64,000 nucleotides of DNA from Verrucomicrobiota bacterium (GTDB lineage: Bacteria > Verrucomicrobiota > Verrucomicrobiia > Limisphaerales > UBA9464), in assembly GCA_046346705.1 (NCBI GenBank), contig JAXMHR010000012.1:109131-173130 (forward strand), given 5' to 3'. The notes under the pieces are model-generated. The model saw nothing but the letters and a program-made list of their open reading frames with translations. It did not search any database and had not been told where the DNA came from. Both the position numbers and the translations under genes were made by a program. How positions within the stretch are numbered: the stretch's first letter is position 1; each line of letters begins with the position of its first letter. This document shows positions 46,850-64,000 of the stretch, one piece after another.

Positions 46850-49800
46850 ATGAAATCCGCACGTTGGCTTTTGTCGGTACTCCTGGCCCTGACGATTCCC
46901 GTCGGCGCCTGGGGCGAGGATGTCGAGTTGGATCCCGTGGACGACTTCTACTTGTGGAGCGTGTCGAATGCGGAAGGCGCTCCGCTGCTGACGCCTTCGA
47001 GCGCAGATCCCGCCGGGCCTTCGGTCTCCTGGGTGAAACCTTCGCACGGAGACCATTTTCAGTTGCCCGATTCGGTATCACTCGTCGCCGTCGCCATGGA
47101 TCCCAACGGCCTGTTGGACGTTGTCGAGTTCCTGGCCAACGGGGAGTTGGTGGGCACGTCCCGGGTGGATTTTTGTCCGCCCTGTCCGAACCCGCCCATT
47201 TGTCCCATGGGCCCCTGCATCCTTCCCCCGGTGGGAACCCCCTTGAAGCATCAGGTCGAATGGGTGCGTCCGAAGCCGGGCTTCTATGAACTGGTGGCCC
47301 GGGCGGTTCGTGCGGACGGGTCCGTGGCGACGTCGCCTGCCATTGGCATCACGGTTGGGGCGGTCGATCCCACGTCGCTGGTCTGGGTCGAGACCGTCCA
47401 GGGCCGCGCGGTTGAGGGTCGGGTGCGGGATGATGGCACACGGGACTTCATTTCCTTCCGGGTCCATCGGCAGGGCAACACCCAACGAAACCTGCAGGTG
47501 TTTTATCATTTGAAGGGCGAGGCCATTCCCGGTGCCGACTACCTGGCGTTTCCCGGCCCAATTTCCTTTCTTCCGGGAGTGGAGGCTCAGGAAGTACGGT
47601 ATGAGGTTTTGGAGGATTTTCTGCTCGAGGGAGAGGAATCCCTGGTTTTCGTGCTCGACCCATCCCCCACGATGGGGCCGGCGTCTCCCTACGAAGTGGA
47701 TCCCAATCGCGCGTCCGCCACGGGTTTCATTGAGGATTCAGGATCCGAGATTCCGGTGGTGACGGTCCAAACGCGACTGCCCTATGCGCTGGAAGGGGAC
47801 CGCCTCAATCGCGGGGAATTTCTCCTGAACCGGACGGGAGATCTCTCCCAGGCATTGTCGGTTAATTTTGAGGTTTCGGGGACTGCGAACCGCGGCTCCG
47901 ACTACCGACTGGTGCTGAACCCGTGTGATGACTGCGCGGCTCCGGACCAGGAGGTGAGTGGAAACACCCTGGTCTTCCCCGAAGGACAGGGAAGCCTGGT
48001 GATTGGAGTTTTCGCAAACTTTGACGGTTTGCCCCCGCACGCGGAGGCGTTTGTCGAGGATCTCCAGTTCCAGATCTCCTCACCGATGATTCCCGCGGTC
48101 CTCGGTGCACGCCCGCCGTACCTCGTGGGAAATCCCGACCGGGCTTCCGTCTCCGTGATTGAGCGGAGGAATCCCGGGGGCCCGGAGGTGATCCTGATTC
48201 AGCCCTCCGAAGGAGAGATATTGCCGCTCGGTGTTCCCAATGGGCTCCGGGCGTTGGCGGTGGATCCGAAGGGCTCGATCCGCCGGGTGGAATTTCTCGC
48301 CAACGGCGCGCTGGTGGGCGTTTCCGAGATCACGACCGAGGAGGTCGATGTTCCCGGCCGGATTCGGGTTCATTCCGCATCGTGGACGGTGGCGGACGTC
48401 GCGCAGTCCGGACAGTACGTCCTGAGCGCACAGGCCGGGTCCGTGGTTTCGGGGTTGGTTCCGGTGACCGTGGAGGGCGGAAGCTCCCTGTTGCCAACGG
48501 TGACCCTCGCCACCCGCAGGACTCCTGTGCAGGAATCGGGGGATGCCCAGAGCCGCACGGGAGGATTCGTCCTTCATCGCTCGGGAGGCGGGGGACTGGA
48601 CGGGGCTCTGACGGTCTTCGTGCTCGCCTCCGGTTCCGCCATTCCGGGTCTCGACTATCAGTGGAATGGCGGGCCACGGGTCGATTTCCCGGGAAGCCTT
48701 CCCTATTTTGGCGCGTTCCAACCCGTCGTTTTCAAACCGGGCGAGACTGAAGCCACCCTTGAATTCACGGCGCTCCAGGACGGCCTCGTCGAGGGGCGCG
48801 AGACGGTGGAGGTGCAGGTGGTCGAGCCTCCCGTGCTGGCGCTGGATGCCGCGGGACTCCCCGGAATCCTGCCGATGTACCTGATTGGAGTGCCCGACAA
48901 GGCCCAGGCCGATATTGAAGATGCGGATTTGAAGGGCGCCCTCGTCGTTGTCTCGGAACCCGGGGCAGGTTCCCGCTTCCATCCGGGGGATGTGATTCCA
49001 ATCACGGCAACCGCGATCCGGCCCGACGCCGGGATTGAGTCCATCCAGTTTCTCGCCGACGGCCAGGTGATTGGGACGGTGAATTACTGCTGCGAGGTGT
49101 GTGACTGCGCGCCGGCGCCGGTGGGACGGGCGTTCACCGCCCGGTTCGCCTGGTCGTCCGCGCCCGCAGGGACGCATGTCCTGACCGCGCGGACCGTGGC
49201 CGGGCCGAACGAATTCGCGGAATCGGCGCCCGTGACGATTACCGTGGAGGCCGGGGAAGGGGCGAATTTGGTCATCGTATCGCCTACCGAGGGAGCGGTT
49301 CTCCCGGCGGGAGTGCCGGTCACGGTGGATACCGTGGGAGTGGATCCCTCCTCGCTGGTGACAACGGTGGAGTTTTTCGCCAATGGGGAGAAGATCGGGG
49401 AGAGCTGCTTCCTGTGCGTGGTGGATGGGATCTTCCCGCCCGGCACCCCGATTCACAATCACCTGGATTGGACCCCCAAGGCGCCGGGCTCCTACGTGTT
49501 GACGGCGTTGGGGTGGTTCTCGGATGCCGCGGGAAATTTGCGCAAGGTGCCGTCGTCACCGGTGACGCTCCGGGTGAAAGAGAATTCCCAGGGGGCTCGG
49601 CTGACTCTCCTGGAACCCGTAAATGGGGCTCAGGTCACTTCGGGCGAAGACGTGTCGGTGACCTGCGTGGGCGTGGGCCGCGAAGGTGGAATCACCGACG
49701 TGGCACTGCGCGTGGATGGGGTATCCGTCGCCGAGTCGCACCTGTCGTTTTTCCGTCCCCCGGGGGCCGACGAGGAGGTGCGTCATTCCTTTGTGATCCG

Positions 49801-51400
49801 TCTCGCGCCGGGAACCCATCGATTGGACGTTCAGGATCTGAAGGACCCTGCAATCCAATCCCCCCCGGTGACTGTGGTGGCCGTGGCCTCGGGCGCGCGG
49901 ATCACCTGGGTCCAGCCGGTGGAAGGTGCGGAGTTCGCGTTCGGAAAGCCCATCGAACTGGAGGTTCAGACGGTGGATCCCGCGGGACTCCTGTTCCTCG
50001 TCGAATACCTCGCGGACGGCATCAAGATCGGGGAGTCCACCTACGACTGCATCACCTGTCGTCCCGCCCCCGGCGCAACCCTCGTGCAACGGTTCACCTG
50101 GGTCGGGGCTCCCGTGGGGCTTCATACGTTGGTGGCGCGGTCGCAGAAGGCGGATGGCACCTGGGTCGAATCCGAACCCCGGGTGATCTCGGTTCGGGAG
50201 ATCGGGGAAACACCGTCGTTTGTCCGGCGGGTGCTCCCGACCACGTATGCCGCCGACAGCCCTTTCACCGTGACCTTGATTGTGTCGCCGGCGGATTCGG
50301 TGGCTGCGTATGTGGTGGAGGAGGTGCCTCCGTTTGCCCGGCCGACCTTTGGGATTCCCGAAAACCTGCCGCCGTTTTGGCGGGTGGTGGCGATCAGCGA
50401 TGGCGGGGTGTTCGATTCGGTCACGGGCAGGATCAAGTATGGTCCGTTCCTGGATTCGGCACCCAGGACGTTGTCGTATCAGGTGCTCCCGGACCGCGTT
50501 GTGGACGTCGCCCCGTTTGAGGGCGTTGGAGTTGCCGATGGGGTCCGTTCTTCCATCACGGGCGACCGTGAGCTCCGCGGTGCCGTGCAGCATCCGGCGG
50601 ACCGGGATCCGGCCGACAATGCGTTGGGGGCCGGAGAACTCACCCGATACGCCGCCGCCTGGAAGCGGGAAGAGCTCTGGCCCGGCGGTCCTAATCCCAT
50701 CCCCCTCGATTACGTGACCCGGGCCGCCGCCTTGTGGAAGGGGGGCGAACGCTACTCGTATGATCCGACCGCGGGTGCTCCTCCCTTCTGCTGGGTGTAC
50801 GGGCCGTTCCCGGTTCCGGGGGCGGCATCCGCAGCCTTGAGTCCAACGTTCGCCGGCATGGCGGTGCGCACCGTGGAGACCCGGGCCGACGGGACCCGCC
50901 ATGTCACGGTCCGCTTGACGCCGGCGCCGGGCATCCGGGCGTTTGCCCTGGAGGAATCCCTTGCGGTCACCGGCGCGGTCCTGGGCATGACGCCCGAAGG
51001 GGCGCTGGCGCCCTCCGGACGCGTGATTCGTTGGGGGCCGTTCTATGGTCCGGACCGCGTGGAGGTTTCCTATGACGTCGCGGCCGGGATTCCCGGGTTC
51101 GTGGTCTCGGGGCGGGCGTCGTTCGACGGACAATCCGTCGCCGTACATGAACGTACCGAGTCGGGGGATGGGGAAAGCAGCCCCCGGATCGGCATGGATG
51201 TCCTACACGACGGGGCTCATCAATTCTCGATGGACCTCAGCGGGATGCCGCCAGGGAAGGGACTGGTCCTCGAGATGAGCACGGACCTTCAGCACTGGAC
51301 TCTCGTGGACACCTTCACCCAAGGAGCCGGTGCGGCATTCGCACGGGATGTCCTCGTTCTGGGGGACGCCGTACGCTTCTACCGGGCCGTGTCCCGCTGA
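46850..51400 (+). CDS. Large secreted Ig-like/Calx-beta repeat protein (1,516 aa) with a terminal beta-sandwich-like module
   Basis: Signal peptide: [22 protein letters not shown]. Six Ig-like units are marked by (V/I)EF(L/F)A(N/D)G..(V/I)G(T/V/E)S. Calx-beta-like units are present ([31 protein letters not shown]; [27 protein letters not shown]). The tail reads ..[12 protein letters not shown]...[10 protein letters not shown]. Confidence 0.85.
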
Positions 51401-51456: not shown

Positions 51457-52473
51457 GTGAACTCCCTCGATCTGAAGTGCGTCCGGACGTTCGCGTCCCG
51501 GGCCTTGGCGTCCCTCGTGTTCCTGGCGGTCTGCCTCTCCGGTTCGACGTGGGCGGGGCCTCTGGATGACGTGTATCGGTTGGGTCCGGATTCCCTGCCG
51601 CAGGAAGGCGTGCCGAAGGGCAGGGTGATCGGGCCGCTCACGCTGCCGAGCCAGGTATTCACCAACACGACGCGGAACTACTGGATCTATGTGCCGGCGC
51701 AATACGATCCGAAGAAGCCCGCGGCGCTGATGATTTTTCAGGACGGGCATGCCTTTGTCGGGCCCGAGGGCGAATACCGGATTCCCAACGTCTTCGACAA
51801 CCTGATCTACCGGCGCGAGATGCCGGTGACGATCGGCGTCTTTGTGAATCCGGGCCGCACGCCGGACCAGAAGGAGGCCTCGTCGTCCGACTGGGGCGAC
51901 CGGGTGAACAACCGGGCGACGGAGTATAATGAGCTTAACGACCGTTACGCGCGCATGATTGTTGAGGAGTTGATCCCCACCCTGAAGAAGGACTACGCGA
52001 TCTCGGACAACCCGGATGACCGCGCCATTGCCGGGGCCAGTTCCGGGGCGATCTGTGCGTTCACCGTCGCGTGGCAGCGTCCGGACCAGTTTCACAAGGT
52101 CATCAGCACCATCGGGAGTTTCACCAACATCCGCGGCGGACATGTCTATCCCGACCTGGTGAAATCCTCGGATCGGAAGCCCATTCGCATCTTCCTCCAG
52201 GACGGCTTGAACGACAACCGGGGAAGCCGTCGCGACGGCGGCTACGACGCGACCTGGGACTGGCACACGCAGAACCGGAAGATGGTGGAGGCGCTGACGG
52301 CCAAAGGCTACGACGTGAACTATTGCTGGGGCATTGGAACCCACTCCAACAAACAGGGCGGCGCGATGATGCCCGAAATGCTCCGCTGGCTCTGGCGGGA
52401 CTATCCCCGTCCCGACGACCCCGCGGACGATTCCAACCGGAAGCTCCTGCCCGCCGTGTCCCCGGCGCCCTGA
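51457..52473 (+). CDS. Secreted esterase (Esterase/PF00756, enterochelin-esterase-like alpha/beta hydrolase)
   Basis: Signal peptide: [18 protein letters not shown]. Motifs: [41 protein letters not shown] (GxSxG), ISTIGSF. Confidence 0.8.
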
Positions 52474-52699
52474 GGCGGTTCGATAAGATGGGAGGGATGG
52501 CATGTTGCCGTCCGAAAACAGATCCGCGGTTGGGCGCGAGGATGGAATTGCGTGTGAATCCCCGTACGAAGGGCGTGACTTGAATGGGGCTCGCAGCATG
52601 CAAGCCCTCCCGTGGGAAGGAGGGGAGGGGCGGCGTCCCGCCGTCCGTAAACAATTCCGGGACCTCGCGGCTAAGAGCAAAGCGGAGCGGGGGCAACTC

Positions 52700-53325
52700 G
52701 AAGAAACGCATGAACCTTGAAGAGGAAATTCAGCGACCCCAGACCGCAGGGAGATGATCCGCGCCCGTGTCATAGCAATACCTTCCATCGCGAAGCGTCT
52801 TGGACTGCGGTAGTCCCCGCTTTCCGACGTGACGGGACGCGCTCCGGAGTCACTGGACCCTATTCCCACGGACGCCACCCGAGTCCCTCGTGGAAGGACG
52901 GTGGAACCTGGGGGGAAGGTCAGTGGGCCTGGCACCTTCTCCATTGCACCTCGCGACTCAAGGGCGGCCGGAACCCGAGTCGGGCGCTTGGACCAACTCA
53001 AGCCTTCGTCCTCAATGGTCCATGAAGGACGTCCCTGGTAGAGGAAGATAAGCGCACACAAAGGCCTGGTTCTGGGTGGACGGCCCCACTCGCTCCGCCG
53101 CGAGATGGGAGTCGAGGCCTTGCACCTCATCCGCACCCCCATCTCGCGGGGATGCCGGCGGCCATTCCAGACGATGAACCGCCGGATCCAATCCACATAA
53201 GCCTCCTCGGTGCGCAGGGAAAGCTGCCGGAAGCGGATCACTTCCCGACATTGATCCAGGAACCGGAGCTTCGGATTGGGGATGTAGCGTTCCAACGGTC
53301 TCTGGGGTGCGGAGCGCCGCTCCAT
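52700..53325 (-). pseudogene. Decayed, truncated integron-type tyrosine recombinase (IntI-like N-terminal SAM-like domain plus start of catalytic domain)
   Basis: MERRSAPQRPLERYIPNPKLRFLDQCREVIRFRQLSLRTEEAYVDWIRRFIVWNGRRHPREMG matches by eye the IntI1 N-terminus ([42 protein letters not shown]). The next segment (EVQGLDSHLAAERVGPSTQNQA) lies in another frame. The frame then returns (LCALIFLYQG..WSKRPTRVPAAL). Similarity fades after ~200 aa and the catalytic RHRY core is not recoverable. Confidence 0.65.
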
Positions 53326-53769
53326 CCGACCCCGGCCGGACCTGGGTGGGATCCTGCCCACCAGCGACGACCGACCTTCCCCATCCGCTTCGGCATTCAT
53401 CCCCGAACTCTATCCCGACCTTGGTCTCCACCGGCCATCCGAAACGCCTCCCGAGAAATGAGGAGCGGAGGCGGATTCGCGACGCGCAGCGTCGAGTTGG
53501 GCGGAACTTCTTCGATCTCAAATCGGTGAAAACCGTTCTCTTGCAGCGAATGGGAGATCCTGTTGGACGGCGGGGTTCCGAGTTGGACCGAAGAAGGCGC
53601 TTCCCGTCAGACCCGCCCACCCCTCCGGACTCAAGTTAGGTGGATGATGCGTCGCTCAAGTGCCCAATAATCCCCTCTTTCGCATAGACATAGCGAGCGT
53701 ATTAGGCTTCGCTCTACTGAGTTAGGCGGATCCTGCTTCCGTCCAATAATAGTTCGCCAGAAGGATGCC

Positions 53770-54561
53770 ATGCCACGTAGAAGTCGATGGAGTCAAAAAT
53801 CGTTTGAGAAGGGAGTTCAAGAGATTGAGCTCTTCTCATGGGACTATTTCGGTGACTACATCTACGACAGGTTGCTGGACTTCAAGACCTACGTCTTTCG
53901 AGGCCATCGACGGTCCGATTGGAAGCTTGAGTCGACGCTAGACAGGGAACTTAGGGGGACGCTTCCAAATTTGCGCCAATCGCGCATGCAGGCCCACCTT
54001 GAAACCTTCAAGCACGCCGCGCGGGGCAGGCGCGGTCAGAACCCACCACGGCTGGACACCGAGAATGATTGGTGGGCACTTGGTCAGCATTACGGTCTTT
54101 ACACCCCACTCCTGGACTGGACCACGTCGCCATACGTTGCCGCCTTCTTTGCATTTGAAAAGACCAAGCACGACGATTCCCACCGCCGCGCGATCTGGTG
54201 CCTCGCGCAGAAGAGCATCGCAGATCGTTCCACCGAAATCGCGTCCCAGCACAGCGGGAATGATCGCCCCCCGATCGTAGAGTTCATCCGTCCGTTCTCA
54301 GATGAAAACTCACGCCTCGTCAATCAGGGCGGTCTGTTTACTCGTAGTCCATTGGGCGTCGATCTTGAGACGTGGGTAAAGCAGCAGTTTCCAAATGAGA
54401 CCAAGAGTTGCCTCCTGATCAAGATCACTGCTCCATCTCATAGTCGTCACAAATGCCTTCAAGAGCTGAATCGCATGAATATTAACTACCTGACTTTGTT
54501 CCCAGACCTTTACGGAGCTTCGTTGCACTGTAATACAGCTCACAAGATCCAAAACTACTAA
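53770..54561 (+). CDS. FRG domain-containing protein
   Basis: Motifs: YVFRGHRRSDWKLESTLDR (FRG motif), WWALGQHYGLYTPLLDWTTSPYVAAFFAF, NSRLVNQGGLFT. AGGA lies 4 nt upstream of the ATG. GC is visibly lower than in flanking genes. Confidence 0.85.
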   Translation: MPRRSRWSQKSFEKGVQEIELFSWDYFGDYIYDRLLDFKTYVFRGHRRSDWKLESTLDRELRGTLPNLRQSRMQAHLETFKHAARGRRGQNPPRLDTENDWWALGQHYGLYTPLLDWTTSPYVAAFFAFEKTKHDDSHRRAIWCLAQKSIADRSTEIASQHSGNDRPPIVEFIRPFSDENSRLVNQGGLFTRSPLGVDLETWVKQQFPNETKSCLLIKITAPSHSRHKCLQELNRMNINYLTLFPDLYGASLHCNTAHKIQNY

Positions 54562-54563
54562 CT

Positions 54564-54665
54564 GTGCGAACCAGACGGTGCAGCGAACGGGAGCCAGCCG
54601 ATTCGCTTGGAGACAAATCCAACGTCATCGGCGGCTGGCTTCCGTCGCTGACCTTTTCGTTGGGC
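54564..54665 (+). other. attC-like imperfect palindrome 5 nt after the FRG stop, ending in a perfect GTTRRRY core (GTTGGGC 54659-54665)
   Basis: The left arm is TGCAGCGAACGGGAGCCAGCCGAT (54581-54602). The right arm is ATCGGCGGCTGGCTTCCGTCGCTGA (54627-54651). They pair with bulged G and A on the left arm and a 3-nt bulge on the right. The outer boxes are tGCGAAC (54565-71) and GTTGGGC. It could alternatively act as a terminator (TTTT follows the stem). Confidence 0.5.
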
Positions 54666-54681
54666 ATCAACACACAGGCCA

Positions 54682-54954
54682 ATGAATCACTTGCCCGCAA
54701 ACCAAGGCGACATCGGTTGGCGAAGGTTCTTCATCTGCGTGGAGGTGGGGTTGGCCTTGTCGTGGTTCGGGGCCGAGGGTTGCAAGGGGAGGATCTCGGA
54801 CATGTGCTTCGCTGTTATGGGGATGACCACGGTTGTCCTTCTATTCGTGCTCCCCTGGTTCTGGGCCAGACTTCGCCACGTGGCGCTATTGGGCTGGCTC
54901 ATGGGCGTTGGCTCAGTCTTCCTCTTGGCACTTCGGTCCCCTGGTCACCGATGA
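54682..54954 (+). CDS. Small (90-aa) predicted three-helix membrane protein
   Basis: Three hydrophobic stretches are present: FFICVEVGLALSWFGA, MGMTTVVLLFVLPWFWA, VALLGWLMGVGSVFLLAL. Its stop overlaps the ATG of the next gene (ATGA at 54951-54954). It starts 23 nt after the GTTGGGC core. I recognise no homology. Confidence 0.45.
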   Translation: MNHLPANQGDIGWRRFFICVEVGLALSWFGAEGCKGRISDMCFAVMGMTTVVLLFVLPWFWARLRHVALLGWLMGVGSVFLLALRSPGHR

Positions 54955-55607
54955 ATACGAATTTGCCCAACAAAGCGGCTGCACTCGAACGCCTCGATGC
55001 ACCCTGGTTCCAGTCGAGTATCATGGGCGCGGCGTCGGTGAGCCGAGACGTTGGGCAAATTATGAATGTCCCCGAATTTATCATCGCATTCCTTCAAGCT
55101 GTAGCATGGCCCGCAGTTGTGGTGACACTCGCCCTAACTTTCCGCAGCGACTTGGCGGCGCTGCTCGGCCGAATCAGCACGTTCAAACACAAAGAGACGG
55201 AACTTCAGTTCGGGCGCGAACTCGCAGAGGCAGCCGATGAGGTGAGGAGAGAGTCGAGCGCTGGAGCCGAGTATCTATCAACTCCGGAAGCCAGGAAGAT
55301 TCTCGCGGTCCTAGAGATTGATCCTAAGGCCGCGATTATCGCCGCGTGGGTTGAGTTCGAATCCGCTGCCCGCGCTGCTTTGCCGCAGAAGCTAGGTTCG
55401 GAGAGACCGTCTCCGATTCCGCATGTTATCGACGCACTCTTGGCGAGCGGACGATTGCACAAATCCGACGCTGAGTTTCTGGGTGTATTGCGCAGGCTTC
55501 GGAATGCCGTTCTGCACTCCGCTGAGGCACCTGTAGATCAAGAAATGGGTTACAAGGCGGTGACCGCGTTACTAGTGATGGCGTGGGAACTGCGTCATCC
55601 GGAATGA
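54951..55607 (+). CDS. Membrane-anchored protein with a C-terminal HEPN-like (DUF4145-like, R-N-x3-H) motif
   Basis: The N-terminal TM helix is FIIAFLQAVAWPAVVVTLALTF. The C-terminal helical domain carries LGVLRRLRNAVLHS (Rx4H with Asn after Arg, the HEPN signature). ATG 54951 was chosen over the long ORF start at 54564, which would read through the hairpin. Confidence 0.55.
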   Translation: MNTNLPNKAAALERLDAPWFQSSIMGAASVSRDVGQIMNVPEFIIAFLQAVAWPAVVVTLALTFRSDLAALLGRISTFKHKETELQFGRELAEAADEVRRESSAGAEYLSTPEARKILAVLEIDPKAAIIAAWVEFESAARAALPQKLGSERPSPIPHVIDALLASGRLHKSDAEFLGVLRRLRNAVLHSAEAPVDQEMGYKAVTALLVMAWELRHPE

Positions 55608-55613
55608 CAAACG

Positions 55614-55705
55614 GCCCAACATGCACTGCAGCGAACCCGGCGGGGGCTTCGTGGTTGCAATCGTTGTGTCTCGTGCGCCGGGTCGCTGAGCTTGGGTCGT
55701 TCGGC
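55614..55705 (+). other. Second attC-like imperfect palindrome 7 nt after the HEPN-gene stop, starting with a perfect RYYYAAC inverse core (GCCCAAC 55614-55620)
   Basis: The arms are TGCAGCGAACCCGGCG (55628-55642) and CGCCGGGTCGCTGA (55676-55689). They have the same bulged G and A as the first site. GCCCAAC is the exact reverse complement of GTTGGGC at 54659-54665. The candidate 3' core is GTTCGGC (55699-55705). Confidence 0.5.
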
Positions 55706-55830
55706 GTGTTGACCATGAGCACCCAACCTCGATCACACCTCAGCAAAAGACAACGTGAGCGTTGCATGATCGAAGCAGCATGGGCGGCTTTTGCTCACGC
55801 GTATCCGGCACGTAGTGGAAAGGCAATGGG

Positions 55831-56090
55831 GTCAGATCTGTATCTTTTACAATTGACTGCTTTTTGCGACGGACTCGAGCGGGGAATGCATGGACTGCGG
55901 GCCTTGGTGCACCGGCGTTCCGGAACCTTGGATCCCGCGATTCGGAAAGGCTCGCGCCAGCCGTGTTCGGCCCTTCTGAAGTCGTCTGCGGTGACAAAAG
56001 TTTCCGGTCATTCGCTGGATTCAGGATTGTTCATCGCGTTTGAAGGATGCCGTGACTGTTGACTTCGTATGTCGCCGGAATCGAAGGCAG
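55831..56090 (+). repeat. Direct repeat copy 1 (260 bp), ~97% identical to 61397..61655
   Basis: Manual alignment to copy 2 gives about 6 substitutions and one 1-nt indel (CTTTTTGCG vs CTTTTGCG). The indel breaks any shared reading frame, so the repeat is most likely non-coding. Confidence 0.9.
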
Positions 56091-56093
56091 GAG

Positions 56094-56149
56094 CAACGGG
56101 GTCGGATCTGTATCTTTGGGGGGGGCAACGGGGTCTGATCTGTATCTTT
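56094..56149 (+). repeat. Two tandem partial copies of the repeat 5' end (CAACGGGGTCNGATCTGTATCTTT) separated by a G8 run
   Basis: The copies are CAACGGGGTCGGATCTGTATCTTT (56094-56117), GGGGGGGG (56118-56125) and CAACGGGGTCTGATCTGTATCTTT (56126-56149). Compare CAATGGGGTCAGATCTGTATCTTT at 55824-55847 and ..ACAGATCTGTATCTTT at 61398-61413. Confidence 0.85.
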
Positions 56150-56412
56150 GACTTTCTGGAGGGACAACTGTGATAGCGAGTAAGAGTTCGCGTGCGCCAT
56201 GGGTCCGGATGGATCGCGTTCTTAGGACGCTTGTACTCCTGGGGTTCGGTGCTCAAAGAGCCCCTTGGATCAGTTCGGGAATCTCGGTGGCCACCGGTAG
56301 GAGTTTCTGGACTGCAGCCTGTCGCCGGGGGGGGCTTTGCATTAAACTTTAGTCGCGTTTCGGTTGAGGTCCGGAGTCCACGAAAGCCCTGAACGATGCC
56401 GCTGCAAACCGG

Positions 56413-57957
56413 TTATGCGGTCAATCGCTCGCGGAGTGGCGCCCGATTGAGGTCGCGCTTCACGCTCTCGTCGTTCACCACCGCTTCAAGCTGGGCGAAG
56501 GTGTCCGCGGCCTGGGTCGATTCGGTTTTCAACCGGTCGCGCATCTTGGACCAGTAATTGTTCAGCGCCTTGGTGACGCTGTCCTGCATGTCCTGCGGCA
56601 GATAGCGAATCCTCTCGAACACCTGACTCGAAGCCGTGGAGAAGATATCATTGACCTCGATGGTTCCCTTTCGCCACTCGCGCAATCGGTCGTCCATGCC
56701 GATGTCCATCAAACCCTGCGTCCTATCCACCCAGACGTCAGTGAAGATGAGCTCATTTTCGACGGACTTGCTTACCGAGCCGATGAAGCGTCCCTGGTTC
56801 GCTTGGACAAACATTCCAAACGTGTTGGCCATCCGCTCGTAGCGGGCCTTGAACGCCTCCTTCACGGCTTCTGCCCACTCGCGGGCATCGGCCTTTTGCC
56901 CATCCGTGGGCAGATCATTGGCCCAGCGATCCAGTGAAGCCTCCGCCTTTTCGTACATCTCGCGGGCACGGTCGAGTCCGTTGACCTTGAGAAAGTCGTC
57001 GACGTCGCGCCGGGTCTGCGACACGGAAACGAGGATTGCTCCCTGGTTTGGCACCAGGCGTTGCAGGTCGTCCAGCTGGGCGCGGTATTCGGAGCTCAGA
57101 TTGGTCAAATCCTTGTAGAGCGCGTTGACCGCGGTGATGAAGCCCTCGAATTCCGGTCCGATGGCTTTCTGGATGGTTTCGGAGACGGCCATGCCTGGAT
57201 CGCGGCAGAGTTCGGGATTATATGCAGCGAGGTCCTTTGCGGAGACTCCGAGCTCCTTGCCCTTGGCGAAGTAATCCTTGCCCAGCAGCGAGATCTTCGG
57301 GACCAGCTTCGCCAGCTGCTCGGGAAGGCCGGCCTCGATGAGCAGGTAGACCACGGCATCGTTTGCCAGGTCGGGCACTTTCATAAAGTAGTCGAGAAGA
57401 CGCTTCAGGCTGTCCGAGTACCGCAGGTAGGCGTCAGTGCCCCTGGAAAGCCCCTTTTTCATGATGTCCGACATCTTCCGGCAGGCTTCGGCCTCGAGGC
57501 CCTCGATGCGTTTCGACTCCTCGCTCATCGTGCCCCATTTCTTCGTCAGGTCCGCGACGAGCTGATTCAGTTTCACCTCGAGAGCCGCAAAATCGTCGCG
57601 CATTCCCTCAATATTGAGGTTCACAAGTCCCTGCAGGAACTTCATCTCCTGGGTGACCTCATGCTCGCGCCACCAGTTGACCTCATCACCAGGATAGACC
57701 AGGCCGGTGGTTACTTTTGAGAACGGCAGGACCCAACGATCAAGGACCAGTTGCATTTTGTCTTCGACCGCCCGCGCCTTGGGTTCCAGGCCCTGATCGA
57801 TCAGCGGTGGAAGGATGTCCGCAAGTGCGGAGGCGCGCGCCTGATAGAGGGGGCTCATGCGAAGCGGCACCTCGACGCGCTCGCCCGGCTTGAACGTCTC
57901 CTTGTCCTTTTCGAAACTGGCACGCAGTTCCTTTTCGCGATGGCTTAGATCGGGCAT
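56413..57957 (-). CDS. Hypothetical all-alpha protein (514 aa), third gene of an unknown three-gene module
   Basis: Start ATG 57957 (MPDLSHREKELRAS) lies 10 nt after the upstream stop. Composition is helical and charged throughout. I recognise no TM segment, signal peptide, Walker A motif or nuclease motif. Confidence 0.7.
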   Translation of the reverse strand: MPDLSHREKELRASFEKDKETFKPGERVEVPLRMSPLYQARASALADILPPLIDQGLEPKARAVEDKMQLVLDRWVLPFSKVTTGLVYPGDEVNWWREHEVTQEMKFLQGLVNLNIEGMRDDFAALEVKLNQLVADLTKKWGTMSEESKRIEGLEAEACRKMSDIMKKGLSRGTDAYLRYSDSLKRLLDYFMKVPDLANDAVVYLLIEAGLPEQLAKLVPKISLLGKDYFAKGKELGVSAKDLAAYNPELCRDPGMAVSETIQKAIGPEFEGFITAVNALYKDLTNLSSEYRAQLDDLQRLVPNQGAILVSVSQTRRDVDDFLKVNGLDRAREMYEKAEASLDRWANDLPTDGQKADAREWAEAVKEAFKARYERMANTFGMFVQANQGRFIGSVSKSVENELIFTDVWVDRTQGLMDIGMDDRLREWRKGTIEVNDIFSTASSQVFERIRYLPQDMQDSVTKALNNYWSKMRDRLKTESTQAADTFAQLEAVVNDESVKRDLNRAPLRERLTA

Positions 57958-57967
57958 GGGATTCGCC

Positions 57968-59599
57968 TTAGATTGGCTGGACCGTGGCGATCCGCCAGGG
58001 ACCTCCGTTGATGCGCTGCAGAGTCCACTTCGGGCGGACGGTGGTGTCGCAAAAGGTCCGTCGTTCCCCCTCAAATTCGCCGACGTGTTCGAGCCAGACC
58101 TCCACCTCCTCGATCACGCTCGCTCCTTTGAACCGCGTGGCATCCACGAGCGTCTTGGGATCGTCCACCCAGGCGACCTGGGCGTCGAGGACGCGGCCCA
58201 TGATGGATCGTCGTGCCTCCTCAAACATCGATTCATCCGGCGAGGGCGCGCACGGATGCACCACGAGTTTTTCCGTTCCATCCTCCGCACTGAGACGTTC
58301 GACCTCCCACGAAACGTGGAGCGCCCGCCATAGTGCGAGATCGTCGTTCTTCACCGCGCCGACCAATGCCAACATGACCTCGGCGGGAGATGCATCCGGC
58401 GGCGGCAGCTTTGGGGATTCATCGACGAGGCCCTCCTCGCCGGCGAAGGGCACCGTGGCATCCGATGGTTGCGTCAAGTCGACGTACAGGGCGCCGCCGA
58501 CCAGTGCCGCCACTGGCTCCGCAACCAGGCCGTACTCGGCGCGTTCCCCCACGACAATAAGCCGCGATTCCCCAGTGATGCGGGCGACGAATTCCCACTG
58601 AGGCTGGAGATTGGGGTCGACCAGCTTGGCGTATCGACGTTGAGCCTTGAGCATCGCCCTCGCTCGCGCGGATTCCGCATCGAGGAAATACCAACCGCTG
58701 CCGCCCGCGGCAAACCAGCCGTGGCCGGCATCCGAGATCCAATCGCTGTTTCTGAGCGGCGGCAACACGACGAGTTTTCCGGTGACTGTTCGGACGTCGT
58801 CGCGCACCGGATTGACCGCGGGAAAAGCGGGAACGATTTCGCTTCGGCGACTTTCCTGAAACGCCGACCACGCGGTTTGCGCCTTGGTGCGGACCTCGGC
58901 GGCCAATTCTTCGCCTCGTCTTCGGAAATCGAGCGCGTTTGGGGGAAGCAACACCCGGCGCCCGTCACACACGGCCACCGCGGCATCGAAGTCGGCACCC
59001 AGCGCGCTCGCCCAAGCGCCTGGATACGCTTTTCGCGCGAAGGCGACCTGGGCGCCGTGGGTCTCGCGGAGATTCCGTGCCTCGAAGCGGCTCACGAATG
59101 AGGAGGTCTGGCGCCGGTCGGCGTCCAGAATCCGCGAAAGCGCCGCCACCATGGTTTCGTCATACCATCCCCCCCAACACGCGGAGAAGCCGTCGGAAGT
59201 CATCGTATTCGGCCCGCCCTCCCCAAACACGACGGCGTTGTTTTCGTCGCGGTAGTAACGCTTCTCCGCAAGCCGGGCCGAAATGGTCAACTCGATCCAT
59301 CCATTCAAGGGCGCCCGTCGGCGGACTTTCAGGGTGATGGGGGATCCTGCAGTCAATCCCAGCCGCGCGAATCCCTGGGATTCCGAGTACAGGCCAATCG
59401 AATCCGCTTCCCGACGCTTCGCGGCCTCGAGGTCCCCGGGTGGCACGATCGGCGCACCATTTACCATCAAGATGCGATCACCGATCTCGAGTCCACTTCC
59501 GCGAAATGGGCTATCCCAGGCGATCCATGTGACCCGAACGCAAGGCGGCGACTGGCCAAGAGCCGAAGCCGTAACGAGCCCGCTGGTCAGATCGGCCAT
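57968..59599 (-). CDS. Hypothetical protein with an N-terminal PDZ-like domain (543 aa), second gene of the module
   Basis: The PDZ-like segment is FRGSGLEIGDRILMVNGAPIVPPGD..GSPITLKVRR. The remainder is unrecognised; the C-terminal ~120 aa are alpha+beta-like (..WTLQRINGGPWRIATVQPI). The start is ATG 59599 (MADLTSG) or ATG 59665. Confidence 0.65.
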   Translation of the reverse strand: MADLTSGLVTASALGQSPPCVRVTWIAWDSPFRGSGLEIGDRILMVNGAPIVPPGDLEAAKRREADSIGLYSESQGFARLGLTAGSPITLKVRRRAPLNGWIELTISARLAEKRYYRDENNAVVFGEGGPNTMTSDGFSACWGGWYDETMVAALSRILDADRRQTSSFVSRFEARNLRETHGAQVAFARKAYPGAWASALGADFDAAVAVCDGRRVLLPPNALDFRRRGEELAAEVRTKAQTAWSAFQESRRSEIVPAFPAVNPVRDDVRTVTGKLVVLPPLRNSDWISDAGHGWFAAGGSGWYFLDAESARARAMLKAQRRYAKLVDPNLQPQWEFVARITGESRLIVVGERAEYGLVAEPVAALVGGALYVDLTQPSDATVPFAGEEGLVDESPKLPPPDASPAEVMLALVGAVKNDDLALWRALHVSWEVERLSAEDGTEKLVVHPCAPSPDESMFEEARRSIMGRVLDAQVAWVDDPKTLVDATRFKGASVIEEVEVWLEHVGEFEGERRTFCDTTVRPKWTLQRINGGPWRIATVQPI

Positions 59600-59908
59600 A
59601 AACTTCGGGCAACGATTGAATTGTTCACGGCGTCCAATCAACAGGAGTTGTCCCGATAATTTCAATCGCAGAGGTTACAGGCCGGACGACTGAGGCTGTG
59701 GCAAGAATCGGGGTTTCGAATGGGAGGCTTCCGACGTCCGAGGCTCGCCACGGGCACCCGGTACGGTCAAGCGGTTGGGCTCGACTCGAACGGATTGCAC
59801 TCGGTGGGACCCACGGGGGCCGACCTTTACGTCTGGAAACTGGAGCTTGCCTTCGTTTTTCGACGCGGACACCGCTGCTTTTGAGAATCGACTCCGGAAT
59901 TGAAGGTC

Positions 59909-61318
59909 TTACCCCGGGCCGATCCCGGGAGCGTCCGTCTGCGTTGAAGTCTCTTTCAATCGAAGGGAAGCAGTCTCTCGAACCTCGGAGTCCACCCAGG
60001 GAGCCGCGGATAGCTCCTTGAGTCGCGGGGGAACGCCCAAGGCGCCGAGGGACACCACTTCCGCTCCCGCGAGTTGCACGTCGTCCTCGCAGTCCCAAAG
60101 ACATTCCTCGGAGAACCGATCTTGAAAGCTCTCCGGGTGGGTGCTCCGCATGGCCGGAACGAGATACCAGCGGGCGCAGGAATGTAGGGCCGTCTCGAAG
60201 GCGAGGCCCAATTCAGGGACGGGACCGACGCCTTCGAGTCGCTCCATCGCCGTTGCGAGATCGCAAATCCGGTAGGACGTCTCAGGTTCATTTCCGAGGG
60301 AATTCTGGAGCGCAGATCGAAGAAGTGAAAGGTCCTCCGGAGCCGCATGGACCTTCATGAGGGCATCCGCCATGTCGCTGAGGTTGCTGTCGTCGTGATC
60401 AAACCATTCCCGGGCGAGAGGCAGGACTGTCTGAGCGGGGAGGGCGACCATCGCGTCCTGCAACGCGCATCGGAGAGGGCGCCAAAGGTCGGCGTTGGCG
60501 CGGTAGATGTCGCGCAACCAGCCAAACAGGGAAGGGTCGGCAATTTTGGCCAACGCCCAGAGCGCGCCCACGGCTCTTTCCCGGTGTTCCAGGACGACCT
60601 GGCTTTGCAGGAATCCCAGATCGTCCGGACTAACCGCCGCCTCAATAAAGCGCCGGAGTCCAAAGATCCGTTTCCAATTGTCTGCGAAGTCCAATAGTCC
60701 AGGAAGATCGAGGGAGGTGAACTGGAACCGAAACGCATCCGCCTGTTCCCGGCGAGTAGCCCTGTGATTCGGACTGCTTACAATCTCGCGAATCCTCGCG
60801 CTGTGGTTGCCCAGGACCTGCCATTCCGGTTTGTCGAGAAATGCGTACTGTAAAGCCTCCTGGAGAGCGATGGCGGTTGGGAATCGGGATTCGATAATTC
60901 CGGCCAGTCGTACCGTCACCTCCGGGTCGGGAAACGACACGAGGGACTCCACGTGGTGCGTCCAGTCCTGATACGTGCGGCAATCTTCGAGGAGAATCTC
61001 GGCAGCCTCCCTGGATCCCCGGCGGCTGAGCGCCCGCAACGTCTTCCAAGTCAGTCCATGTTCCTCGCAGCCGTCGTCCTCCCGAATCCGGTTCGCGAGC
61101 GGTTCGAGGGGAAGCCCGACCCGGAGGGCCAGTTCCGCGTAATAGTCGCTGCGATTCTCGCACTGGTAGTCTATGCGAGGGTCCTGAAGGATGCAGTGGG
61201 TCAGTAGCCGATGCGCCACCGGTTGTGGTTCCCGGATGAGCCGGAGAAATCCGAGTCCGCGGCCGCGCTGGAGTTGTCCCAGCAGGGAGTCCGGTGGTGC
61301 ATGAATTGTATCGGACAT
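59909..61318 (-). CDS. Hypothetical helical-repeat (HEAT/ARM-like) protein (469 aa), first gene of the module
   Basis: The sequence has helix-turn-helix repeat character throughout (e.g. AAEILLEDCRTYQDW, RAVGALWALAKIADPSLFGWLRDIY, LSLLRSALQNSLGNE). I recognise no catalytic motif. Confidence 0.65.
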   Translation of the reverse strand: MSDTIHAPPDSLLGQLQRGRGLGFLRLIREPQPVAHRLLTHCILQDPRIDYQCENRSDYYAELALRVGLPLEPLANRIREDDGCEEHGLTWKTLRALSRRGSREAAEILLEDCRTYQDWTHHVESLVSFPDPEVTVRLAGIIESRFPTAIALQEALQYAFLDKPEWQVLGNHSARIREIVSSPNHRATRREQADAFRFQFTSLDLPGLLDFADNWKRIFGLRRFIEAAVSPDDLGFLQSQVVLEHRERAVGALWALAKIADPSLFGWLRDIYRANADLWRPLRCALQDAMVALPAQTVLPLAREWFDHDDSNLSDMADALMKVHAAPEDLSLLRSALQNSLGNEPETSYRICDLATAMERLEGVGPVPELGLAFETALHSCARWYLVPAMRSTHPESFQDRFSEECLWDCEDDVQLAGAEVVSLGALGVPPRLKELSAAPWVDSEVRETASLRLKETSTQTDAPGIGPG

Positions 61319-61396
61319 GGCAGCGTTGCGGATCCGTGCTGATCGCGGCGGATTCGCCTTGGCGGGTCAAGCAGACAAGCCGGGGGGCAACTTCAT

Positions 61397-61655
61397 GACA
61401 GATCTGTATCTTTTACAATTGACTGCTTTTGCGACGGTCTCGAGCGGGGAATGCGTGGACTGCGGGCCTTGGTGCACCGGCGTTCCGGAACCTTGGATCC
61501 CGCGATTCGGAAAGGCTCGCGTCAGCCTTGTTCGGCCCTTCTGAAGTCGTCTGCGGTGACAAGAGTTTCCGGTCATTCGCTGGATTCAGGATTGTTCATC
61601 GCGTTTGAAGGATGCCGTGACTGTTGACTTCGTATGTCGCCGGAATCGAAGGCAG
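61397..61655 (+). repeat. Direct repeat copy 2 (259 bp), directly upstream of the Phd/VapC pair
   Basis: See copy 1. It is preceded by GGGGGGCAAC (61382-61391), the same G-run+CAAC prefix seen at 56118-56129. Confidence 0.9.
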
Positions 61656-61722
61656 CCGGCGCTGTCCTGTTCGACCCTTGGGTGCTATTGACCTCGTGCG
61701 GAAAGTGACCATTATTCTGGTC

Positions 61723-61965
61723 ATGCAAGCTTCCGTTGCGCAGGCGAAAAGCCAATTGGCCGATTTGCTTCGGCGGGCCGAACGTGGCGAGGAGGTTGTG
61801 ATCGCCCGGCATGGATTACCCGTAGCGCGCTTGGTGGCCATTCGATCCTCTGGCCCGCCGCCTGTTTCTGCGACGCCCTTGGATCCAAAAGATTATGCGG
61901 GAATTGACCTGGATGAACCGGCATTCCCCTCATGGGAGAAAGGTGGCAATGCGAGCCTTGATTGA
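61723..61965 (+). CDS. Type II antitoxin, Phd/YefM family
   Basis: MQASVAQAKSQLADLLRRAERGEEVVIARHGLPVARLVAI is the canonical Phd/YefM N-terminal fold signature. The gene overlaps the toxin gene by 17 nt. Confidence 0.85.
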   Translation: MQASVAQAKSQLADLLRRAERGEEVVIARHGLPVARLVAIRSSGPPPVSATPLDPKDYAGIDLDEPAFPSWEKGGNASLD

Positions 61966-62347
61966 TTCCGGATTGTGGTGGCGGCGTTACCACGGATTGC
62001 CAATGGGCCGGCGGCTCGCCCGTTTCCTGGAACAGGAGGTCAGCGAGTTCTGGCTTTGTCCGGTCTCGGTTCAGGAGATGCTCTACAAGTGGCGGCATCG
62101 GAAGTTGCCGGCACCGGATCCTGCCGAATGGCTCGCGGAGGCCACGGAAGGTTATCGGGCGGCACCGGTCACCCTTGAAGCTGCCCGGGTGGCCGGGCTT
62201 TGGGAATGGGCGCATGGGGATCCCGTGGACCGCTTGCTCGCCGCGGTGGCGAACACCGAGGGTTTGACGCTGGTGCATACGGATCAGAGGCTTCGGTCAT
62301 TGTCTGGATTTCCCCAGCGATACTTTCCGAATATTGGAATGGTGTAG
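61949..62347 (+). CDS. vapC: Type II toxin, PIN-domain VapC family
   Basis: The N-terminal acidic motif is MRALIDSG. The C-terminal motif GDPVDRLLAAVANTEGLTLVHTDQRL is the DP.DR..IA.A....L.L.T.D PIN signature. Its position immediately after the Phd antitoxin also fits. Confidence 0.85.
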   Translation: MRALIDSGLWWRRYHGLPMGRRLARFLEQEVSEFWLCPVSVQEMLYKWRHRKLPAPDPAEWLAEATEGYRAAPVTLEAARVAGLWEWAHGDPVDRLLAAVANTEGLTLVHTDQRLRSLSGFPQRYFPNIGMV

Positions 62348-62495
62348 GACGAATATTCCAGGAACTTCAACCAATGGGTCGGGCTCGGCCTCCGTGAAGG
62401 GCGATCTCCTCCCAGGGTGAATTTCGGACGCGGAGGACCCGGAATCGCCGCTGAGGGCTTGCGTTGCGGACCGGGTCCGGGCTACTCGCAGGGCT

Positions 62496-63761
62496 GTGAG
62501 TTCCCCCACCCCTCCCGGCGTGACTTCGGCCGAGACCGTTGCCGGCACTGCGTCCGTGCGCTGGCCGTCGCAGATCAAGTTCATCATCGGCAACGAAGCC
62601 TGCGAACGGTTCAGCTTTTACGGGATGAAGGGCATCCTGGCGGGCTACATCACCGGGGAGGTGGCCCGCGGGGCTCTGGGACAGTCCAAGGACCGGGCCA
62701 CGGAGTGGATCCACCTGTTCATCATGGTGAGCTACTTCACGCCGCTCCTGGGGGGCTACCTCGCGGATCGGGTGTGGGGACGCTATCGCACCATTCTTTG
62801 GATTTCGCTCCTGTACTGCGTCGGACACGGGGTGCTGGCGCTGAGTGAGTTCACCGCCAGCGTGGATGCCAAAATCGGGATGTTGGGGACGGGCATGGCG
62901 CTCATCGCCCTGGGTGCGGGCGGCATCAAGCCGTGCGTGTCGGCGTTCATGGGCGACCAGTTTCTGGCGGGGCAGACGCGGCTGTATCAAAAGGCGTTCG
63001 GGGCGTTTTATTTCTCGGTCAACTTCGGGTCCTTCTTCGCCTTCCTGACCATTCCGTATCTCGCCCGCACGGTGGGATATGGCTGGGCCTTCGGGGTTCC
63101 CGGCATCCTCATGGGGATTGCCACCTTGATTTTCTGGCTGGGAACGCCGCGGTATGTCCGGGTGCCTCCCGCGCGGGAGACGCGCACGGCTGGACTACTT
63201 TCGGTTTTCATGGAGGCGTGGAAGAACCGTCTTCCCGGGCAGGATTTCTGGGGAGGCGCGTCTCCCAGGTATTCGGAGGAGGAGATTTCCGCCGCGCGTT
63301 CGATCCTGCCAGTGCTGAGCATTTTCATCCTCATCCCGCCCTTCTGGGCCATGTTCGACCAGCACGCGTCCACCTGGGTGCTCCAGGCCCGGCAGATGGT
63401 GCCGCTGCGCGTGACCGAGTCCTACTCAATTGGGGGAGAGGAGATGCAGTCCTTGAATCCTCTTCTCGTGATGATCCTGGTCCCGCTCCTGACGGGCGTG
63501 GTGTATCCGCTGGGCGGGCGGCACGTCACCCTTCTCCGGAGGATCGGGGTGGGGATGTTCATTGCGGGGGCCTCGTATGTGATCGTGGCCTGGATCCAAC
63601 AGCGGCTCGATTCCGGAGTGACAATGAGCGTGCTGTGGCAGGCCCTGCCGTATCTGGTCCTGACCACCGCCGAGGTGTTGGTGTCCACGGCCGGACTCGA
63701 ATTCGCCTACACCCAGGCGTCGAAGAGCATGAAGAGTACGATCATGAGTTTCAGTACCTGA
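62496..63761 (+). CDS. POT/PTR2-family proton-dependent oligopeptide transporter (MFS). The 3' end is disrupted by at least 3 frame changes between ~63745 and ~63900
   Basis: Motifs: GNEACERFSFYGMKGIL, YFTPLLGGYLADRVWGRYRTI, LIALGAGGIKPCVSAFMGDQF, FYFSVNFGSF, GLEFAYTQASKSMKSTIMSF. The expected continuation (LTVAAGMVCGLVTRF; FLGYAVLTFLVSVIFV; VAMRYRYRE) appears successively in other frames. Confidence 0.85.
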   Translation: MSSPTPPGVTSAETVAGTASVRWPSQIKFIIGNEACERFSFYGMKGILAGYITGEVARGALGQSKDRATEWIHLFIMVSYFTPLLGGYLADRVWGRYRTILWISLLYCVGHGVLALSEFTASVDAKIGMLGTGMALIALGAGGIKPCVSAFMGDQFLAGQTRLYQKAFGAFYFSVNFGSFFAFLTIPYLARTVGYGWAFGVPGILMGIATLIFWLGTPRYVRVPPARETRTAGLLSVFMEAWKNRLPGQDFWGGASPRYSEEEISAARSILPVLSIFILIPPFWAMFDQHASTWVLQARQMVPLRVTESYSIGGEEMQSLNPLLVMILVPLLTGVVYPLGGRHVTLLRRIGVGMFIAGASYVIVAWIQQRLDSGVTMSVLWQALPYLVLTTAEVLVSTAGLEFAYTQASKSMKSTIMSFST

Positions 63762-64000
63762 CGGTGGCGGCGGGAATGGTATGTGGCCTGGTCACCCGAT
63801 TTGGCGGGGCGGGAGCCACGATGCATCGGTGACGCCGGGGAGGTTTCTGGGTTATGCGGTGCTGACGTTTCTCGTGTCGGTGATCTTTGTCGGGGGTCGC
63901 GATGCGGTATCGCTACCGGGAGATTCCGGCCGTGCCACGGCCGGATAATTCCTTCCACTCGGGTTCACCACTGAGGCCTCGACTCCATCGACACGAAACC

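Follow-up and report, generated by a model that had tools for sequence, protein, structure and literature searches.

Gene content of the locus

The subject of this study is a 64,000-nucleotide (nt) stretch of an uncultured Verrucomicrobiota genome (contig JAXMHR010000012.1, positions 109,131 to 173,130; hereafter the window, to which all coordinates refer unless stated otherwise), for which a preliminary description, made from the sequence alone, had proposed a chromosomal integron, or an attC-site cluster without integron-integrases (CALIN), with an inactivated integrase. The locus in question lies between an esterase gene on the left, whose stop codon is at 52473, and a POT-family transporter gene on the right, both of which were found by Pfam and NCBIfam profile searches in the places where that description had put them. 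Next to the esterase gene are the remains of a minus-strand integron-integrase gene (intI), namely a stub of its N-terminal part, followed by an attI site and three plus-strand gene cassettes, each with an attC site at its end. On the strength of attC covariance models, of scores on IntI profiles and of the survival of nothing but a stub of intI, we conclude that the region at 52.5-55.7 kb is a degenerate chromosomal integron (probability about 0.9), in support of the proposal.

The guanine-plus-cytosine (GC) content of the window is 61% overall and about 63-64% in the flanks around the locus. In the cassettes it is 53.8-59.3%, with dips to 52-58% over 53.5-55.7 kb. The lower GC content that had been noticed around the FRG gene is therefore borne out, and we count it as a sign of foreign origin.

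Three attC sites on the cassette strand

An Rfam scan of the whole window at gathering thresholds gave no match, and no attC-type family was returned from Rfam; we therefore built covariance models of our own. The first, R1, was made only from nine attC sites of a single array, that of L008 (contig CAIXFN010000093, a metagenome-assembled genome (MAG) of an uncultured Pedosphaera), and was applied to all 64 kb of the window with filtering disabled. The second, R2, was made from the 62 sites that R1 detects beside IntI genes in 21 other loci across many phyla. The L008 array comprises at least 11 cassettes upstream of intI, in which short open reading frames (ORFs) on the strand opposite to intI are followed by GCCTAAC, 7 nt, CTGCAGCGAAC ... 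GTCGCTGAGCTTnnnTC and GTTAGGC; the inner motifs of its attC sites read CTGCAGC(G/C)AAC ... GT(C/G)GCT(G/C)AGCTTnnnTC. The structure of the L008 alignment consists of a 7-bp R helix and a 10-bp L helix with two bulges, and 92.8% of its cells are paired, with four pairs covarying on both sides, against 18-38% in controls with slid partners.

Both models detect the same three sites, all on the plus strand: attC_a at 54566-54665 (also given as 54565-54665; R1 48.1 bits, E 4.4e-10; R2 46.5 bits), attC_b at 54965-55056 (R1 33.2 bits, E 2.8e-6; R2 47.2 bits, E 4.6e-10) and attC_c at 55614-55705 (R1 62.1 bits, E 1.2e-13; R2 59.2 bits). Beyond these, the next match to R1 in the 64 kb scores 10.6 bits (E 1.7), and R2 finds nothing above 15.7 bits. 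The sites lie 1.2-2.4 kb from the start of intI, the criterion being a distance within 4 kb. Thus, the two palindromes of the preliminary description, attC_a and attC_c, are real attC sites that stand well clear of this background of at most 10.6-15.7 bits; the third site, attC_b, had been missed, and the 'unit 2' of that description therefore splits into two cassettes.

The sites are 100 (attC_a), 92 (attC_b) and 92 nt (attC_c) long, and every junction motif reported earlier could be located (GTTCGCC at 53752, GTTGGGC at 54659, GCCCAAC at 55614, TGCGAAC at 54565). In attC_b the R'' box GCCCAAC and the R' box GTTGGGC are perfectly complementary. The R boxes of attC_c, whose R' is GTTCGGC, pair at 6/7 positions, and those of attC_a pair at 4/7 as they now stand and at 6/7 if the start of its own cassette is used. 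Furthermore, attC_a and attC_c share TGCAGCGAAC ... GTCGCTGA, and the 10-mer TGCAGCGAAC occurs in exact form nowhere else in the 64 kb. A different crossover for attC_c, at the CTTGGGT of 55689, was considered and rejected, since the spacer and R' box that are conserved among sites of the L008 type read GAGCTTnnnTC-GTT.

The two palindromes first described fold more stably than shuffled sequences, the z-scores being -3.3/-3.8 in the first case and -1.5/-1.95 in the second. When the bottom strands were folded as single-stranded DNA, the z-scores were -3.97 for attC_a, -3.02 for attC_b and -1.66 for attC_c, with 0 of 200 shuffles folding as well as attC_b. In addition to R and L boxes and a GTT crossover, the sites have, in their bottom-strand folds, one bulged T and one bulged C, each a single base, on the arm that faces AAC and separated by 6 bp. 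At the near position the usual base is G, as in some of the L008 sites; here it is C. An attC is expected to have R'' and R' boxes of the forms RYYYAAC and GTTRRRY, L boxes, an unpaired spacer and 2-3 extrahelical bases, all on one bottom-strand arm. The known rule for extrahelical bases in attC places the first near position 16 and the conserved T at 23/24, with a spacing of 6 bp, and further specifies spacers of 5-6 nt and an overall length of 57-141 bp (Nivina et al., PMC5027507). The arrangement of the bulges in the window agrees with that rule, and the geometry that the preliminary description wished to see checked by folding is indeed there.

The cassettes and their products

The attC sites delimit three cassettes on the plus strand. 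Cassette 1 (53753-54659, 907 nt) consists of an ORF for an FRG-domain protein (53770-54561) and attC_a; cassette 2 (54660-55050, 391 nt) of an ORF for a hydrophobic protein of 90 amino acids (aa; 54682-54954) and attC_b; and cassette 3 (55051-55699, 649 nt) of an ORF for a 181-aa protein with a presumed transmembrane segment and a HEPN domain (55062-55607) and attC_c. The spacing is compact throughout: the stop codons are 3-10 nt from the attC, the cassette starts are 11-22 nt from the ATG, and the cassettes measure 391-907 nt. The first 6 nt of cassettes 1, 2 and 3 are TTCGCC, TTGGGC and TTGGGC, and their own R'' boxes are (T)GCGAAC, GCCCAAC and GCCCAAC, such that 5/6, 6/6 and 6/6 positions are complementary. 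The rule of complementarity between cassette start and R'' box, which had been proposed for two units, holds for all three cassettes.

The product of cassette 1 matches the FRG domain (PF08867, E 1.6e-26) and, in the PADLOC database, the profile PDLC04937 (PDC-S15; E 6.5e-96) over its full length, with residues 4-261 aligned to positions 4-251 of the 254 in the profile. By this similarity it is a candidate for a single-gene phage defence, PDC-S15 itself being only a candidate family of defence genes. No family match was obtained for the 90-aa product of cassette 2 in the Pfam, NCBIfam and PADLOC searches.

The product of cassette 3 has a hydrophobic N-terminal segment, presumed to be transmembrane, and a weak match to DUF4145 that is below the Pfam cut-off for the protein itself (17.5 vs 23.1 bits). 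An exhaustive profile search for its family gave 1987 representatives, typically of about 185 aa, and these align with the 181-aa form beginning at its residue 1. In 40 members of the family the Rx4H motif (R147, N148 and H152), of the Rx4-6H type that characterizes the all-helical HEPN domains, is invariant; DUF4145 is matched in 26 of them, HEPN_RiboL-PSP in 10 and HepT-like in 8. Because members match these three families, sequence comparison confirms the protein as a HEPN member, with its hydrophobic N-terminus as the basis for the presumed membrane part. An AlphaFold model from the single sequence is all-helical and of low confidence (predicted local distance difference test score 56). 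The FRG gene, the small membrane protein and the HEPN protein are thus present as had been reported, with the last two in separate cassettes and not in one unit. The public gene call for cassette 3 (54951-55607, 218 aa) is an over-extension, and the true start is the ATG at 55062, since the family aligns from the first residue of the shorter form. The first 37 codons of that call span attC_b, which the automatic annotation conceals inside a coding sequence.

The integrase remnant

From 53400 to about 52900 on the minus strand, the N-terminus of an integrase is spelt across all three frames, broken by frameshifts. The pseudogene (52918-53325, minus strand), as delimited by PF13495, TIGR02249 and tblastn, retains only the N-terminal SAM-like core-binding domain. 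Its stitched translation matches Pfam PF13495 (Phage_int_SAM_4, E 2.9e-16) and, with 61.6 and 59.8 bits, the integron-integrase models TIGR02249 and NF011946 of NCBIfam, in keeping with the IntI-like SAM domain already seen on this strand. When 50 full-length IntI proteins were used in tblastn, their N-terminal domain (residues 12-141 of the protein of locus L007, from a MAG labelled Akkermansia) aligned to 53307-52918. Significant homology is confined to these positions and does not reach down to 52700, to which the remnant had first been extended.

The space in which the catalytic half of intI is expected (52474-52917, minus strand) has no detectable homology to it. For the C-terminal part, the 50 IntI proteins give no significant tblastn match to the window or to the sister allele L003, and hmmscan of all three frames of 52000-53700 found nothing of this half at E<=10. 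From the ATG at 53325 to the esterase stop at 52473 there are only 852 nt, which is too short for a full gene, as intact relatives of 302-408 aa need at least 906 nt. With its catalytic domain absent and its frame broken, the intI gene is dead.

The affiliation of the remnant was assessed with P0001, the product of a less decayed sister allele, in which 160 codons stay in frame. Its score on the integron-integrase model TIGR02249 is 118.8 bits (E 3e-34), whereas the XerA and XerC models give it 16.8 and 11.7 bits. The closest integrase relatives over the N-terminal domain are those of L007 (69%) and of L008 (66%), which score 420.9 and 333.4 bits on TIGR02249, both above the curated IntI cut-off of 265 bits, with the L008 intI ORF only 274 aa long. 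The L007 protein contains a stretch that we take to be the IntI-specific insertion. By profile comparison, which is not a phylogeny, the remnant groups with IntI and not with Xer or phage integrases, and the question of IntI or XerC/D affiliation raised earlier is answered in favour of the former.

These scores bear on the reading that the palindromes are transcription terminators, or genome-wide repeats akin to repetitive extragenic palindromes or miniature inverted-repeat transposable elements, that happen to lie beside the remnant of a phage- or Xer-type recombinase. It is true that the palindromes are GC-rich hairpins directly after stop codons, and that 54628-54651 matches a simple terminator scan. 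On the other hand, TGCAGCGAAC is exact only in attC_a and attC_c within the 64 kb, the palindromes match from end to end models that come from IntI-adjacent arrays in other phyla, the R boxes and GTT junctions follow a common logic with bulged bases on one arm only, and the IntI score of the stub exceeds its XerC score by about 100 bits. We regard such a reading as effectively refuted.

Other relatives of the stub N-terminus were also recorded. The 120 matches listed are all short (73-231 aa, many of about 100 aa) and have the SAM_4 domain; 18 of them include part of the catalytic domain, and several come from long contigs (37-438 kb). It may be that environmental genomes often carry truncated intI stubs, although the word-based search may also favour short proteins.

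The attI site and the attC pool shared with a Pedosphaera array

The attI site (53719-53758, plus strand) was recognized by its similarity to L008. It contains the crossover G53752/T53753 and a direct repeat of the GTTAGGC type (53720-53731), of which another copy is found at 53635-53646; repeats of this type are found upstream of the crossover in both the window and L008. The 36 nt that end at the GTT of 53752-53754 are 78% identical to those at the same position upstream of the first L008 cassette. The similarity stops exactly at GTT, beyond which each genome continues into a first cassette of its own, and this supports the crossover at 53752/53753. The junction G/TTCGCC, which had been placed there from its letters, accordingly coincides with the point at which attI similarity ends.

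The attC sites tell the same kinship. attC_a and an L008 site (8044-8144 of that contig, minus strand), which follows an unrelated ORF for a small membrane protein, agree at 89% of positions over 101 nt, the two integrases being about 66% identical. attC_c is 75-79% identical to three L008 sites, and the sites of the window are 60-67% identical to each other. None of the island proteins of the window has a relative in any of 80 integron loci. As the attC sites are similar and the cassette proteins unrelated, the lineages of the window and of L008 draw on a common pool of attC sites with different cargo. In summary, the two arrays have in common the attC family, a similar attI, a divergent layout of intI and cassettes, and related integrases, whereas L008 differs in its at least 11 cassettes, its IntI above the curated cut-off, its unrelated cargo and its other chromosomal neighbourhood.

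Sites of the R1 type also occur in 21 other IntI loci from many phyla. They are on the strand opposite to intI in 10 of these 21, and in L008 all 11 are so oriented, upstream of intI. Three loci, L052 (12328-20253 of its own contig, from an Acidobacteriota MAG), L048 and L020, have attC sites downstream of intI on the same strand, i.e. the inverted-integrase layout.

The adjacent DNA at 55.7-62.4 kb

The preliminary description had spoken of an island of about 10 kb with integron architecture, and had cautioned that its right-hand part shows no clean cassette structure. The caution was well placed: on the cassette strand of 55706-62400 there is no attC with R1 or R2 at E<=10. The architecture claimed is therefore real for 52.5-55.7 kb and does not extend to 55.7-62.4 kb, such that the integron portion measures about 3.2 kb and not 10 kb.

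What the right-hand part does contain is a pair of 258-nt direct repeats on the plus strand, the left copy at 55833-56090 and the right copy at 61399-61655, which are 98% identical and enclose three minus-strand genes (56413-61318) for proteins of 514, 543 and 469 aa, of which the second matches PDZ weakly (E 2e-4) and the third is a HEAT-repeat protein. A 29-nt motif, GGGGCAAC-N7-GATCTGTATCTTT, is present in four same-strand copies at 55820, 56090, 56122 and 61386, with two tandem copies directly 3' of the first copy of the 258-nt repeat. The repeat was considered as a structured RNA and rejected (z 0.10, no Rfam match), and as a gene and rejected (its ORF has no family match and its frame differs between the copies). 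The right-hand proteins gave nothing above noise in PADLOC; against PDB sequences two were without matches and the 543-aa protein had only a weak PDZ match (E 0.04 or worse). The three genes were also rejected as a conserved module, given that homologues of the HEAT-repeat gene are found in unrelated neighbourhoods.

On the plus strand, past the right repeat copy, is a toxin-antitoxin pair (61723-62347). The Phd antitoxin gene is at 61723-61965 (PF02604, E 2.8e-8; TIGR01552, E 8.7e-9), and the PIN/VapC toxin gene (PF01850, E 8.2e-10) ends at 62347, with its most likely start at 61949, where it overlaps the end of phd. Phd/VapC-type pairs are common in chromosomal cassette arrays, and the earlier description had seen this pair in that light, as the end of the island. 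The pair is present, yet its surroundings (59840-63815) give no match to R1 or R2 at E<=10, and without a flanking attC it is not callable as an integron cassette.

The frequency of such pairs in chromosomal arrays is one of the points that would speak for the whole 10 kb as a single former array, in which the right-hand genes and Phd/VapC would be cassettes with decayed attC sites. Others are a 115-aa ORF that begins 16 nt past the last crossover, and the GC content of the right-hand stretch, which is slightly lower at 60.4%. We nevertheless consider this reading very unlikely. In addition to the lack of any R1 or R2 match on the cassette strand, three of the genes run in the opposite direction and code for proteins of 469-543 aa, which is atypical of cassettes; the 115-aa ORF is without a family match and loses its frame in the second repeat copy; and a comparison with the 80 integron loci shows no similarity. 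Since attC sites are lacking, the minus-strand genes are bracketed by repeats and Phd/VapC is without attC, the stretch at 55.7-62.4 kb is read as neighbouring accessory or backbone DNA, not as a cassette array.

Upstream of the locus, at 3141-19568 and 46850-51400, the window has an ORF of 5475 aa and one of 1516 aa whose start resembles a signal peptide. A tRNA scan of the window found none.

Variation among contigs of the same locus

Public assemblies contain several contigs of the same locus. L001, a 114-kb contig from ENA, is about 96% identical to the window and runs collinear with it for 20 kb, a stretch that takes in the whole island; L091 matches window 54169-61521 (7353 nt) at 100% identity; and identities of 96-99.9% are seen in several further short contigs. 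Wherever a contig covers the cassettes, their order is the same, i.e. FRG, the 90-aa membrane protein (TM90) and HEPN, and L091 and L001 continue past the cassettes into the same right-hand genes. Exact-protein look-ups for FRG, TM90 and the 218-aa form of the HEPN protein returned the same gene order only, and the VapC product is not on record.

The intI stub varies far more than its surroundings. In most of the same-locus contigs 160 of its codons stay in frame (P0001); a single allele is common to L001, L002, L003 and L090, and that of the window is a different one, more heavily broken. A comparison of the window with L002/L003 gives 42 substitutions plus some 29 gap columns, all within 52669-53133 in the stub, vs no substitutions in the esterase, attI and cassette segments compared (about 3.4 kb in total). 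It is possible that the divergent tract was imported by recombination, that it arose by gene conversion from another intI copy, or that it is an assembly chimera. A 465-nt tract with 6-8% divergence confined to the stub might reflect repeated recombination with other intI copies and not plain decay. As a separate observation, the Logan contigs L002, L004, L005 and L006, which come from different runs, all end at window 52801, inside the integrase remnant.

Some contig ends raise the question of whether the array is frozen at all, or whether an intact IntI elsewhere in the genome or the community still exchanges its cassettes, which would make it a live CALIN. The last letters of the Logan contig L002 are ...GGGTCGTT (window 55701; ...GTCGTT), exactly at the crossover of attC_c, and an ENA contig, L088, which is 99.88% identical over 2470 nt, ends (window 55704) with GTTAGG where the window has GTTCGG; two independent assemblies thus break at the same crossover. 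Moreover, the attC types are common to the array of another species, and it has been noted that CALIN cassettes may be mobilized in trans (PMC4889954). Against this, the difference in L088 is a single base at a coverage of about 2x, every contig that reads through keeps the order FRG-TM90-HEPN, with L091 and L001 entering the same right-hand genes, and the 64-kb window holds no second integrase-like region. As the variation at the junction comes down to one base and to contig ends, we rate activity in trans as unlikely. That the end of attC_c is a live exchange point in particular, where the cassettes that follow vary within the population through an IntI acting in trans, on a pool of attC sites shared by Pedosphaera-like Verrucomicrobiota, seems to us quite unlikely.

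Proposed history of the degenerate integron

Taken together, these results indicate the following history for the degenerate integron at 52.5-55.7 kb. A minus-strand gene for an IntI-type tyrosine recombinase was formerly present, divergent from attI, and three promoterless cassettes were inserted at attI by IntI recombination between attI and the folded bottom strand of attC, with the crossover between G and TT. The integrase afterwards lost its catalytic half and gained frameshifts, leaving the N-terminal stub, attI and the cassettes for FRG/PDC-S15, the 90-aa membrane protein and the TM-HEPN protein. Such an array would be unable to rearrange itself and would be mobile only if an IntI from elsewhere acts in trans. 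Its cassettes would presumably be read from a promoter in the intI/attI region, in which case FRG, being first, would be best expressed, and the FRG and HEPN genes may serve phage-defence or abortive-infection functions.

Several points weigh against this interpretation. R1 and R2 were built here from the arrays of other genomes, as stand-ins for the attC model of IntegronFinder and its IntI_Cterm profile, and the IntI-specific insertion and the catalytic residues belong to the half that the stub has lost. The conservation of attI is seen with one comparator, L008. No sigma-70 consensus promoter was found in 53000-56400, where Verrucomicrobiota promoter types may lie outside the scan. The defence role of the cargo is annotation-level, and we found no experimental paper on PDC-S15. 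Finally, neither an empty site nor an intact intI at this locus was seen in any relative outside the species, so that the 'accessory' status of the element derives from its GC content and its nature. The searches for relatives included 80 metagenome loci with homologues of the esterase (70-80% aa identity), none of which has the 1516-aa protein, the POT transporter, an integrase or the island genes, and an integrase scan with one genome per species, in which none of the matches was of the same species or genus and the top match was 69%. A plasmid origin was sought with blastn against PLSDB, which gave no match.

Relation to known integrons

With three attC sites, and with the stub as the sole integrase-like region in 64 kb, the locus is a CALIN by definition. 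It has most of the structural features of an integron and lacks a functional intI. It does not match the large and homogeneous sedentary type, having three cassettes and pairwise attC identities of 60-67%. In the IntegronFinder survey, which lists Verrucomicrobia among the phyla with integrons, 15 of 279 CALIN had adjacent intI pseudogenes (Cury et al. 2016, PMC4889954). The window resembles these in its at least two same-strand attC sites, the lack of a functional intI and the adjoining remnant. It differs in that their pseudogenes were detected by the C-terminal IntI-specific profile, whereas the stub of the window is N-terminal only, so that the survey's screen would probably miss it; in addition, its attI is still recognizable.

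Like the superintegron of Vibrio cholerae, the element is chromosomal, has cassettes of unknown or defence-type function and lies near a toxin-antitoxin pair. In contrast to it, there are three cassettes, the attC sites (60-67% identical) are not highly homogeneous, the integrase is dead and the toxin-antitoxin pair is without attC. Cassettes with phage-defence functions have been described in 'Mobile Integrons Encode Phage Defense Systems' (bioRxiv 10.1101/2024.07.02.601719). The cassettes of the window are likewise small and single-gene, with a PDC-S15 candidate in cassette 1 and HEPN in cassette 3, whereas their host is an environmental Verrucomicrobiota, the element has no plasmid match and the defence functions are annotated from sequence.

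The locus is therefore a small and clear but ordinary example of an element type that is already known, and knowledge of how integrons work is unchanged by it. It does provide an integron remnant that is cleanly resolved and belongs to an uncultured lineage of Verrucomicrobiota, and defines an attC family and an attI common to this genome and a Pedosphaera MAG. It also illustrates that screens using a C-terminal IntI profile would miss such pseudogenes. Lastly, with three compact candidates, its cargo fits the emerging view that the integron cassettes of environmental bacteria may stockpile genes for phage defence.

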